From a virus (Duplodnaviria > Caudoviricetes), in IMG/VR virus record IMGVR_UViG_3300012157_000001, positions 1 through 64,000 of that record: 64,000 nt of DNA. One strand, written 5' to 3'. Under the pieces are notes generated by a model. That model had not been told where the DNA came from. It saw only the letters and a program-made list of their open reading frames with translations, and ran no database searches. Made by a program: the position numbers and the translations under genes. Position 1 is the first letter of the stretch, and each line of letters begins with the position of its first letter. Shown piece by piece: positions 30,084 to 33,405 of this stretch.

Positions 30084-30487
30084 AGATCGACCTCGCGATC
30101 GTGCTCCTCGGCGCGGGCGGCGCGTTGCTGGGCTACGGGCTCTACCGAGCTTTCAGTGGCGGCGCGCAGCCCGGAGCGGAGCCACCGGCGCCAGCACAGC
30201 CGGACGCCTCCGCGCCGGAGCCTCCGGTGACCTACGGCGAGCCGAAGGTAACTACGCCTTTCCCGGCTGGGTACCGACGGCTGAAGCAGGCTGAGGTGAC
30301 TCCATCCCTCACCAGCAAGGCAACATCGATCCGGAACGCGCCAGGCTTCACGAGCATGCAGTACGGAACTGTGGTTCCAATCGGCGGAGCCACGGCGGCG
30401 CTGATCGAGCAGCACTATCACGAGCCCGGTGGAGCCATGACGCCGTGGGGCTACCACCACGGTGTCACGCTGATCCAGCAGGCGTAA
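30080..30487 (+). CDS. N-terminally anchored protein
   Basis: MKID-led Gly-rich TM, Pro stalk, EQHYH...WGYHHGVT. Confidence 0.65.
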   Translation: MKIDLAIVLLGAGGALLGYGLYRAFSGGAQPGAEPPAPAQPDASAPEPPVTYGEPKVTTPFPAGYRRLKQAEVTPSLTSKATSIRNAPGFTSMQYGTVVPIGGATAALIEQHYHEPGGAMTPWGYHHGVTLIQQA

Positions 30488-30488
30488 G

Positions 30489-31097
30489 ATGAAGATCGAC
30501 GCAACAACCGTTCTGATCGGAGTTGGCGGCGCGCTCGTCGGTTACGGCATCTATCGAGTGGTGAAGAACCGACAGACGGGGGCCTCTTCATTCTTCACTC
30601 CATCCGTCGTGACGGGACCGCGGCCGCCGGGTCTGCCGCAGTCGGAGCCTCTCATCGCGCAGCTGAAACCGTCCGTGCAGCCCAAGGCACGCGAGGTGCT
30701 TCAGCGTGCGATCAACATGGGGATCCCGCTCGTCGTCACGCAGGCGTACCGCGATCCGGCTGAGCAGGCGCGACTGTACGCGCAGGGGCGCACGACGCCG
30801 GGGGCAATCGTGACCAATGCACCGCCCGGTTGGTCGTGGCACGAGTACAAGCTTGCCTTCGACGTCGCGGTGCTCGACCAGGTCACGGGTCGACCGACGT
30901 GGCCAAACGATAACGCGCTCTGGCAGCAGATCGGTGCGGCCGGAAAAGCCTCCGGCCTGGAATGGGGTGGCGACTGGACGGGCATCGTGGACCGCCCGCA
31001 TTTCCAGTTTACGATGGGGACACCGATTGCTTCGGCGCGCGCGGGTCAACTGCCGGCGCAGCTCGCAGGATTGTGCTCTTTTCGGCTTGCCGCTTGA
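30489..31097 (+). CDS. M15-family (L-Ala-D-Glu type) peptidoglycan peptidase with N-terminal anchor
   Basis: YR..EQ..LYAQGRT.PG.IVTNA..G.S.H....AFD...WGGDW....D.PHFQ. Confidence 0.88.
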   Translation: MKIDATTVLIGVGGALVGYGIYRVVKNRQTGASSFFTPSVVTGPRPPGLPQSEPLIAQLKPSVQPKAREVLQRAINMGIPLVVTQAYRDPAEQARLYAQGRTTPGAIVTNAPPGWSWHEYKLAFDVAVLDQVTGRPTWPNDNALWQQIGAAGKASGLEWGGDWTGIVDRPHFQFTMGTPIASARAGQLPAQLAGLCSFRLAA

Positions 31098-31240
31098 GGG
31101 AGTTGACGCCAACTGAATGCGCTGGCAGCATTGGCTGCACGGTGCGCATCGTCAATGCGCCTGATCCTTGACAATAGGAGTGGTGGCTGCGCGTGCGAGC
31201 GGTCCATTGCCGCTCAAGGCCCCGGGAGCGCTCGCAGGAG

Positions 31241-32108
31241 ACAGCAGAGCCGGCGGAGCGGCATGGTTTCTCCGAGGTGGGTGGCCCAGGGCGGCACGCC
31301 CGATAGGGACGACCAGCAGATCTGGCGGAGCGGCGTTGTTTCTCCGAGCTACAGGCCAGAGATCAACCCCCCGGGATCTTCCTTAGCCAGCAGAGCCGGC
31401 GGAGCGGCGTCGTTTCTCCGAGGAGCCAATCGTCTGGCCTGCATCGAGGGTGATCTCCCCAACAGAGCCTGCGGAGCGGCGTCGTTTCTCCGAGGCACGG
31501 TAGGCAGGTGACTCAATGACTGTACCGCACGACCCAACAGAGCCGGCGGAGCGGCGTTGTTTCTCCGAGGTGGATATGGACCGCGGGATCGTCGCCTACG
31601 ACTTCGCGCCAACAGAGCCTGCGGAGCGGCGTAGTTTCTCCGAGCCGCGGGAATGGCCCGAGGGACCCCCTACCGTGGCGGCCAACAGAGCCTGCGGAGC
31701 GGCGTCGTTTCTCCGAGAAACGTCCCCCCTGGGCGTTGCCGAGACCCTCGTCTCCCAGCAGAGCCCGCGGAGCGGCGTCGTTTCTCCGAGCGCGATGCCT
31801 TTTCGTTCTACCGACGAGCAAGGTGGGCCAGCAGAGCCGGCGGAGCGGCGTTGTTTTCTCCGAGCCGATGTTCCAGTCGAACAGGGGCCTGCGGAGAGGC
31901 GAAATGTCTCCGACGTGATGCGGCTGCGTCGAGAGCCTGCGGAGCGGCGTGGTAGCTCCGAGGTGACGCGCGCAACGCGGAAAACGCCTCTCCACTCGAA
32001 CCAGCAGAGCCTGCGGAGCGGCGTGGTAGCTCCGAGTGGTGCGTCAGCACCGTCTTCGCACGGAACCCGTACCCAGCAGAGCCGGCGGAGCGGCGTTGAT
32101 GCTTCGAC
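31241..32108 (+). CRISPR. CRISPR-like array, block 1: 13 repeats, consensus CCARCAGAGCCNGCGGAGCGGCGTYGTTTCTCCGAG (36 bp); no cas gene in window
   Basis: Repeat starts 31241, 31313, 31387, 31459, 31534, 31609, 31682, 31755, 31828, cores at 31885 and 31933, then 32001, 32073; unique 36-39 bp spacers except two short ones. Confidence 0.9.
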
Positions 32109-32167
32109 CTTCGATCCAATCCATTGTGTTAGAGCGCGCCCTGCGCGGTTTCGGATATACTGGCGCC

Positions 32168-32329
32168 ATGGCTCAGAAGCGAAAAAAGAGCGGTCTGCCC
32201 AGCTGGTTTCCGTTCGCACTCGGTGCATCTGCGGTGCTCATTCTGTTCGCGGGTGCTCGATCGGGCTGGAGGACGAGCGCAACCCAGGGGACGCCGCTCC
32301 GTGGCTGGCCAGGTCGACGAATTGCATGA
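32168..32329 (+). CDS. 53-aa membrane peptide embedded in the array
   Basis: TATACT 6 nt upstream of ATG; MAQKRKKSGLPSWFPFALGASAVLILFAG...; stop abuts the next repeat. Confidence 0.5.
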   Translation: MAQKRKKSGLPSWFPFALGASAVLILFAGARSGWRTSATQGTPLRGWPGRRIA

Positions 32330-32739
32330 GAGCCTGCGGAGCGGGCGTTGTGCCTCCGACTAGTGCGCGTAGTGCATTTGAGCCAGCGGCGTGGCCTGGT
32401 GACGTCGAGCGGTAGTAGTCGGCGTTGGTCAAGCCCGCGGAGGGGCGTTCGCTACTCCGACATCAGTCATCCCAAGGCTAGAGCCGGCGGAGCGGCAAAA
32501 AAACTCCGAGACGTCGAGCATTACCGATTGGTGCCCGCAGCAAGAGCCAGCGGAGCGGCGTCACTGTCTCCGACAGGTTGCACCATCGTCTTTTAGCTCA
32601 CGGAGAGGCGCTGCCATCTCCGACCACCAGATGAGCGTCGCGGAGCCCGCGGAGGGGCGTTGTGCCTCCGGCGCCATGCCTGAGGCCACCTCCGACAGCC
32701 ACATCGTTCGAGCCCGCGGAGGGGCGTTGTGCCTCCGAG
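32330..32739 (+). CRISPR. CRISPR-like array, block 2: 8 divergent 30-31-bp repeat cores, mostly 18-21-nt spacers
   Basis: Cores GAGCC-NG-CGGAG-N-GGC-N7/8-CTCCG-AS at 32330, 32380, 32431, 32481, 32544, 32594, 32643, 32710. Confidence 0.75.
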
Positions 32740-32811
32740 AGCCTCTGCTGCGACGTGCCCGCGGAGGCGCCATTGACCCGCGTGTGCCACCGATGCTATC
32801 ACTGGCGGCAC

Positions 32812-33405
32812 ATGGCAGACGACGATAAACCGGCCAAGCCGGCGGAGCCGTCTCCTCGCATCGAGGCGCCGATGATCTTCGTGCGCGGCGGAACCACGAC
32901 GGCGAAGCACGATGTGCTTATGGCGAAGCAACGCGCGGATACCGAGCAACGTCGCGCCATTCAGGACCGGCAGTATCAGATCACGCGCGAGGACCCGATG
33001 GCCGCGCGCATGCATTCTATGAAACTTGCGGGCGCCGACTCGCCGAAGATCGTCGTCGCGGTCAAGCATCCGAAGGAGCTGGACTTCAAGGAATGGGTCA
33101 TCTGTGACCTGCTCGACCAGGGCACGGAGAAGGTTCTGAACATGCGGTGCCCTCAGTGCGCCGCAAAGAACCCGGGCCACGAGCCCGACTTCATGATCAA
33201 GCAGTCGAACCGGCGGTGGCACTTCGACCCGCGGCCGCCGAGGTGGATGCGCGACCTCGGGACCGACCGGATCTGGGTCAACCCGGCGGACGGCAGCACG
33301 GTCGTGGTGGCGGGCAGCGTGACGACCGACGACTGGATCCGGTGTCCGGGCCTCGGGTGCGCCTGGCACTTCAAGATCGACGACTCGGTGGCGTACCCCA
33401 AATGA
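32812..33405 (+). CDS. Zn-ribbon-containing hypothetical protein
   Basis: Promoter TTGACC-N18-TATCAC at 32773-32802; CPQC and CPGLGC. Confidence 0.7.
   Translation: MADDDKPAKPAEPSPRIEAPMIFVRGGTTTAKHDVLMAKQRADTEQRRAIQDRQYQITREDPMAARMHSMKLAGADSPKIVVAVKHPKELDFKEWVICDLLDQGTEKVLNMRCPQCAAKNPGHEPDFMIKQSNRRWHFDPRPPRWMRDLGTDRIWVNPADGSTVVVAGSVTTDDWIRCPGLGCAWHFKIDDSVAYPK

Follow-up and report, generated by a model that had tools for sequence, protein, structure and literature searches.

The 64,000-nucleotide stretch analysed here, which we refer to as the window, corresponds to positions 1 to 64,000 of the virus record IMGVR_UViG_3300012157_000001 (Duplodnaviria; Caudoviricetes). Between positions 31241 and 32739 its + strand carries array A, a series of 21 repeats of 36-37 nt arranged like a CRISPR array. 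When the whole window was searched with filters off, a covariance model built from the repeat family (R1) recovered these 21 copies with E values from 3.5e-8 to 0.006, the next-best match in the window having an E value of 0.4. An earlier, sequence-only reading of this DNA had counted about 21 repeats sharing a fixed skeleton; we found exactly that number, all on the + strand, and nothing similar elsewhere in the window.

Each repeat is composed of an 8-nt flank followed by GCC, N, G, CGGAG, N', GGC, a 7-nt linker that a few copies extend to 8 nt, CTCCG, A, and a final G or C. In the reference repeat (31387..31422, + strand, in the register of the alignments A3 and A7 presented below; its spacer begins at 31423), stem 1 brings together 31395-31397 and 31406-31408, with N/N' as a fourth pair (31398 with 31405), while stem 2 brings together 31400-31404 and 31416-31420 across the linker at 31409-31415. 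In the same register, a G.A pair faces 31399 with 31421. Four + strand copies depart from this plan: repeat 31313 has TCT in place of GCC, repeat 32588 has GCT with CA replacing N-G, repeat 32324 has an additional G ahead of GGC, and repeat 32637 ends in GC.

The copies fall into two blocks on the + strand. Block A1 (31241..32108) contains 13 repeats and 12 spacers, ten of which are 36-39 nt long, the other two measuring 14 nt (31865-31878) and 12 nt (31915-31926). A 215-nt insert (32109..32323, + strand) splits the array and leaves eight diverged repeats in block A2 (32324..32739), where five spacers are 12-15 nt long and two are intermediate (27 and 31 nt). The period is 72-75 nt over most of 31241-32108 and 48-51 nt in the short units (31828-31927 and 32324-32637).

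We analyzed the proposed pairings in two alignments: A3, which contains 61 distinct repeats aligned to the model, and A7, which contains 17 representative gap-free repeat types from 14 arrays. Stem 2 is paired in 99.7% of cases in A3, with changes on both sides at three of its five pairs; covariation proves this stem. Stem 1 is paired in 98.9% of cases and is near-invariant (its third pair is CG in 56 repeats, UG in three and UA in one), and its covariation in A3 was matched by 39 of 500 shuffles, the rows being related sequences and shuffle counts, here and below, not probabilities. The N/N' position is paired in 65.6% of A3 repeats against 40.4 +/- 5.4% after shuffling (0/500 as high). In A7, stems 1 and 2 are each 100% paired and the whole structure 96.7% paired, against 82.6% in shuffled alignments (0/500 as high) and at most 56% with slid partners. 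Double changes occur there at two of the three stem 1 pairs, with GCT/AGC in locus L252 and GGC/GCC in L260; a further locus, L259, combines a GGC/GCC stem 1 with a different 6-bp stem 2, in a register off by one nucleotide that was read by eye and left uncounted. The idea that both stems are kept by covariation, as initially proposed, thus holds strongly for stem 2, but stem 1 is near-invariant in the window and compensated only in L252, L259 and L260. Within the window, stem 1 is partly supported, resting on conservation and on solved structures, with covariation coming from two or three independent lineages elsewhere.

Individual copies show the kinds of change that had been read from the sequence. 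The linker varies freely and is even all A at 32497-32503 (AAAAAAA). Repeat 32374 has CGGCG/CGTCG in stem 2, that is, one compensated pair and one G-U, together with A/T at N/N', for which alternatives also occur in repeat 31879 (T/A) and in repeats 32425, 32637 and 32704 (C/G). The G-U wobbles at 32073 (CTTCG) and in repeat 32588 (GCT) pair on the + strand only. Over alignment A3, nine G-U pairs are found at the third pair of stem 2 and three in stem 1, all of which would be C-A mismatches if the minus strand were read.

The repeat closely resembles published guide scaffolds of type V-M effectors. Numbered backward from the spacer, G(-24) lies opposite A(-2), CGGAG (-23 to -19) opposite CTCCG (-7 to -3) and GCC (-28 to -26) opposite GGC (-17 to -15), and the predicted pseudoknot ends 2 nt ahead of the spacer. 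In the 36-nt scaffold of Cas12m2, the partner of G(-23) is A(-2), and the stretch C(-22) to C(-17) is joined to G(-8) to G(-3) in a helix that stacks on a stem (PMC10442227). The Ms and Tf Cas12m CRISPR RNAs (crRNAs) read GCC, 3 nt, CUCAG, N', GGC (GGU in Tf), 7 nt, CUGAG, AC (PMC11013384, Table S5); the repeat described here follows the same order and spacing, with one nucleotide fewer between stems 1 and 2. Cryo-electron microscopy (cryo-EM) of Cas12m2 and GoCas12m reveals a stem plus a pseudoknot in the 36-nt scaffold (PMC10442227, PMC11013384). The likeness to type V-M repeats, pointed out in the sequence-only reading, is therefore borne out by the published crRNAs and structures.

The window covers the opening 64 kb of a virus record of 179,401 bp, whose ends carry direct terminal repeats and whose completeness is rated 100%. 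Applied to this full genome, the same covariance model detects 42 repeats in two places only, array A and a second array, array B (genome 144982-146351, minus strand), which comprises 21 model hits plus one further degenerate copy beyond them, so that 42 is a lower bound for the genome overall. Directly upstream of array B, at a distance of 71 nt and in the same orientation, lies a 669-aa open reading frame (ORF; genome 146430-148433, minus strand) that we refer to as the effector gene. It is single-copy in the genome and lies 114 kb from array A, whose strand is opposite. As the repeats of both arrays fit one model and the only effector gene is this distant one, array A qualifies as an effector-distal, or orphan, array. 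The description of array A as Cas-less was correct at window scale only, given that a single effector is encoded elsewhere in the genome. We detected no Cas1 (PF01867) across the complete genome, in a search to which control genomes were positive (Cas2 and Cas4 were not searched for), and no TnpB-type zinc ribbon (TNB, PF07282). In array B, two repeat subtypes are mixed between genome positions 145302 and 145990 (L001:7303-7991), which differ in their linkers and in whether the fourth pair of stem 1 is C/G or G/C. The G/C subtype is the array A consensus, which suggests exchange between the arrays.

By sequence and by modelled fold, the putative effector is a relative of Cas12m. While no match was found in Pfam, NCBIfam or PHROGs, phmmer against the PDB retrieved a Cas12m (23vw_A, E 2.1e-8) and UnCas12m4a (E 8.8e-5). 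An AlphaFold (AF2) model built from 24 homologues, with a pLDDT (predicted local distance difference test) score of 77, has Cas12m2 (8hhl_A, E 7e-16) and GoCas12m (8pm4_A, E 1e-14) as its top Foldseek matches. VIA-align superposes it on four Cas12m chains with Z scores of 16.5-17.3 over 414-485 residues; of the other families, Cas12f comes next, Cas12f and TnpB not exceeding Z 12.7, and Cas12l reaches 8.1-8.5. A WED motif, VVLHR-IP-D, is conserved with Cas12m; in Cas12m2 the crRNA scaffold is read by the H and R of this motif.

The protein has, however, neither the RuvC triad of Cas12m (D-E-D, H-D-D or N-D-D) nor the C-terminal zinc finger. Among 24 family members (alignment A1), R, H, D, N, S, A or E occupies the column of the RuvC-I aspartate (I-D-L-G in Cas12m), and G or A stands in place of the RuvC-II acid. 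The chain ends about 40 residues past the last RuvC helix, in a 44-residue tail with no Cys, a pLDDT below 50 and a conserved terminal AAE tripeptide. Structural alignments stop at Cas12m2 residues 543-557, where the zinc-ligand segment 549-572 begins; the zinc ligands of Cas12m2 are H549, C552, C569 and C572 (PMC10442227), and the third catalytic residue of GoCas12m is D590 (PMC11013384). A profile search of 1.84 billion representative proteins returned 2746 matches at E <=0.001, of which 337 at E <=1e-30. No tail CxxC is present in 84 of 174 relatives, whose RuvC-I residue varies, while the 41/174 relatives with at least two tail CxxC motifs carry D or N at this position. That so many relatives are devoid of a zinc finger indicates that the reduced form is a sizeable clade and not one broken gene. 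A C-terminal AAE, after a disordered tail, is observed in 51 of the 84 zinc-finger-less and in 18 of the 41 zinc-finger-bearing Cas12m-like proteins; only one in 1024 long reading frames of this phage ends in AAE. The tripeptide may be a docking or degradation signal.

We identified 27 effector homologues with 40-94% identity, whose sources are only metagenomes and IMG/VR contigs, and found repeats of this family at 13 further effector loci. In ten of them (L003, L004, L005, L006, L009, L011, L016, L252, L259 and L260) a multi-repeat array lies 28-225 nt past the effector stop codon, on the same strand as the gene, and regular arrays have a period of 68-77 nt. Two others have one repeat after the effector gene, again on its strand, and no second one (L015:3711-3746 and L253:3483-3518), so the minimal locus would be one scaffold plus whatever comes next. 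In L002, unlike the 12 other loci, where the array is downstream, three short units are located just upstream of the effector gene. The co-oriented homologous arrays directly downstream of the effector in those 12 loci, together with the strand fit of the G-U pairs, bear out the proposal that array A is a CRISPR-like guide cassette read from the + strand. Arrays turn over, as seen from L011, whose effector is 92% identical to that of this phage and whose array content after the gene differs. In L009 (4542-5026), the effector is 62-64% identical and the repeat very different, with a 6-bp stem 2 (CGGATC/GATCCG) and the AC tail kept; no convincing GCC/GGC stem 1 could be placed in this repeat, where it is either relocated or dispensable. 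Two collection scans with a 14-base repeat pattern gave single chance matches only.

Across the 42 repeats of the genome, the 16 stem positions are off consensus in 7 of 672 cells, against 156 of 536 cells for the first six flank positions and the linker (Fisher p 9e-52; cells are not independent, and the contrast is very large). The conserved part of the repeat starts about 2 nt before stem 1, which fits the Cas12m2 scaffold, disordered at its 5' end (-36 to -30). In the short units, about 18-22 nt remain up to the point where the next scaffold becomes ordered. The heteroduplex of Cas12m2 measures 17 bp (PMC10442227), a length for which the short units would suffice, and by this analogy they may act as guides.

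Short units of this kind, which repeat every 47-53 nt (L011 has a single period of 64) and have 11-17-nt spacers (28 nt for one unit of L011), occur in both arrays and in two related loci: at 31865-31926 and 32361-32636 in the window, at 145056-145337 in the genome, at L002:9827-9965 and at L011:12036-12188. Their six 5' nucleotides are variable and their scaffold is intact. They look like a trait of the family rather than the decay of one array.

Taking these observations together, we consider it very probable that a type V-M-like system encoded by the phage includes array A as its second CRISPR array, distant from the effector. Transcription of the array would proceed on the + strand, starting in its own short leader or reading through from the endolysin operon that lies upstream in the same orientation, and each repeat would fold into the stem 1/stem 2 pseudoknot, with 2 nt left before the spacer. 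This handle may then be bound by the effector encoded in trans, whose WED motif is conserved with Cas12m, and the same protein may cut the precursor upstream of each handle; Cas12m carries out this cleavage without involvement of RuvC. The resulting complex would carry a guide of about 17-20 nt to double-stranded DNA flanked by a protospacer-adjacent motif (PAM), where it would bind and block transcription or replication with no cutting. That the effector should bind and block rather than cut follows from the absence of a conserved RuvC acidic triad, of the zinc finger and of the third RuvC residue. Competing mobile elements or host genes are likely targets. That the array is a maintained one, served by an effector encoded elsewhere in the virus, had been anticipated from the repeats, with the host as an alternative source of the effector, and agrees with the single Cas12m-like gene at 146430-148433 and with stems conserved even in the distal repeats.

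We also consider, more tentatively, that the zinc-finger-less, triad-less, AAE-tailed Cas12m-like proteins might form a distinct, mainly virus-borne type V lineage acting as an adaptation-independent RNA-guided repressor, the short-spacer blocks of both arrays, L002 and L011 being selected cassettes of guides of about 20 nt and not products of decay. This is possible but doubtful; if true, the guides of the phage, distributed between two arrays, would in part be a hard-wired set.

Several results speak against a functional type V-M-like array. No spacer could be assigned a protospacer, which leaves interference unproven: in BLAST searches neither array A nor array B matched any of 50,697 phage records, nor did array A match any of 72,556 plasmids, and spacers compared with the masked genome of the phage and all fetched loci shared only chance-level words of up to 17 nt. 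One exact-match scan of IMG/VR with 22 nt of spacer sequence returned nothing, and matches of array A in 401 Myxococcota genomes were weak (best per-genome E 1.5e-4, the chance level over 401 genomes). Upstream of array A only the core motif of the family leader is present, the remaining ~45 nt of the usual leader being absent, and a sigma-70 promoter scan of 30400-33400 found no site. With respect to structure, N/N' is mismatched in one third of the aligned repeats, and pairs in only 12 of the 21 window copies, in line with the mismatches already noticed by the sequence-only reading. When single repeats are folded as nested minimum-energy structures, their energies do not surpass those of shuffles (z -0.2 to -0.5) and the pairs differ between copies, in a program that cannot model pseudoknots. 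Lastly, transcription, processing and loading of array A are steps that we infer, and the effector lacks domains common to all characterised Cas12m, its DNA binding and RNA processing being extrapolated. The first 24 nt after every repeat were also compared with the phage genome, the longest match being 14 nt; the absence of any long match makes self-regulation by long perfect matches unlikely.

Some of these points would also fit an unused duplicate of array B in the course of decay, be it the whole of array A or only its distal block (32324-32739) and the short-spacer units. The lack of detected targets, the truncated leader, the irregular spacing with 12-15-nt spacers, the diverged repeats and the 215-nt insert with its ORF all lend themselves to such a scenario. 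Decay, however, would hit all positions alike, and in the 14 distal irregular repeats of both arrays the stems are off consensus in 4 of 224 cells against 79 of 172 for flank and linker (p 2e-29). Moreover, the stem changes that do occur are compensated or wobbles, the short-unit architecture recurs in array B, L002 and L011, and the ~18-22 nt left by the short units are enough for the 17-bp heteroduplex of Cas12m2. We therefore regard a relic as unlikely.

The repeats could instead be an RNA decoy, that is, an RNA anti-CRISPR in which they mimic the crRNA handle of a host Cas12m and soak up the host protein. Phage-borne repeat units are reported to act as RNA anti-CRISPRs for other CRISPR types (Camara-Wilpert et al., 2023), and short-spacer units would make poor guides yet good decoys. 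Against this, a matching effector of the phage's own adjoins the sister array of the same repeat family, most units have full, unique spacers of 36-39 nt, and the effector profile found no family member in samples of 401 Actinomycetota genomes (one spurious 18-bit match) and 401 Myxococcota genomes; a decoy thus appears very improbable. We attach still less weight to the array not being type V at all, whether as a class 1 (Cas6-type) repeat on the minus strand or as non-CRISPR iterons, protein-binding sites or terminator hairpins. High-GC hairpin repeats can look alike, and Rfam models at gathering thresholds identified no family over the window. A minus-strand class 1 repeat, which the sequence-only reading had itself named as fatal to its proposal, is contradicted by the G-U pairs, which turn into C-A mismatches on that strand, and by the co-orientation of the array with a Cas12m-like gene in every related locus. 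In addition, the hairpin occupies the 3' end of the repeat, next to the spacer, which is also its place in type V, and the spacers are unique and of CRISPR length.

The type V-M-like system proposed here may be compared with characterised type V-M systems (MmCas12m2, GoCas12m, MsCas12m and TfCas12m; PMC10442227, PMC11013384; PDB 8hhl, 8pm4, 23vw). Common features are the sequence, fold and WED motif of the effector, the 36-nt repeat with the same stem 1/stem 2 pseudoknot, 7-nt linker and 2-nt tail, an array that is downstream of the effector and co-oriented with it, and no adaptation genes (here, Cas1 is absent). The present system differs in that its effector is without the zinc-finger (TNB) domain and the third RuvC residue, with a variable RuvC-I position and the RuvC-II acid replaced, and in that the loop between the stems is one nucleotide shorter. 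It is also phage-borne, with short-spacer blocks and two arrays, one of them 114 kb off. MvCas12m of myxophage MV-1 (bioRxiv 10.64898/2026.09.14.751636) is likewise a phage type V-M effector, without cas1, cas2 or cas4 in its locus and without identified protospacers; by its description, however, it has 610 aa, a conserved D-E-D triad and one array of eight spacers, whereas triad and zinc finger are gone here and 42 repeats are distributed over two arrays. Virus-borne orphan or mini arrays, and the phage effectors Cas12j/CasPhi and Cas12l/CasLambda, are alike in that viral arrays are found far from or without cas genes, are thought to serve inter-virus conflict, and compact effectors process their own guides. 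Those systems usually borrow a host effector or are nuclease-active, in contrast with the phage-encoded, apparently nuclease-dead Cas12m derivative found here, which Cas12l matches weakly (the Z scores of 8.1-8.5 above).

The pseudoknot, known from cryo-EM, and phage Cas12m as such are thus not new. What is new is an effector clade devoid of both zinc finger and catalytic triad, the presence of a further large array at 114 kb from the gene, and short-spacer blocks under a constraint that preserves the stems. We found no publication on such a zinc-finger-less, triad-less clade, within an incomplete coverage of the literature. Reading the whole genome shows how an array that is Cas-less at the level of a window can be accounted for by a partner encoded in trans. 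The repeats also constitute a natural mutational scan of what a Cas12m-type guide needs, with 16 stem positions fixed or compensated and the linker and 5' flank free. The uncharacterised Cas12m-like clade is sizeable, comprising at least 84 of the 174 relatives, and its having shed zinc finger and catalytic triad while keeping its arrays bears on the evolution of RNA-guided DNA binders and on compact programmable repressors.

Upstream of array A, the co-oriented gene at 30489..31097 (+ strand) encodes an endolysin (Peptidase_M15_4, Pfam E 2.6e-12; PHROG endolysin families, E 1e-31). The other neighbours of the array are genes with no function assigned by Pfam or PHROGs, and the endolysin, used as a query for related loci in IMG/VR, returned none. 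The intergenic leader (31098..31240, + strand) between the endolysin gene and the first repeat includes a direct copy of the family leader motif at 31226-31238, with the core CTCGCA, and an inverted copy at 31192-31204. In alignment A8, each of the 13 leaders next to an effector gene has this 13-nt motif after the effector stop codon, with six invariant positions, and a weaker, AT-richer block is found about 20 nt beyond it; beside array B the motif is at L001:8395-8410 (minus strand). It is not a general promoter-like word within this phage genome, and may be an array promoter or the site of a regulator.

The insert that splits array A contains a small ORF (32170..32328, + strand) of 52 aa with one hydrophobic helix and no family match in Pfam or PHROGs; its stop codon abuts the following repeat. 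Within this ORF lies an anti-repeat, a reverse-complement copy of the repeat core on the minus strand (32290..32306). In the predicted fold, 32291-32306 pairs with 32330-32347, in repeat 32324-32360, as a duplex of about 16 bp, with an overall energy not better than that of shuffles (z 0.29). The anti-repeat could be an attenuator, a processing site or the relic of an inverted unit.

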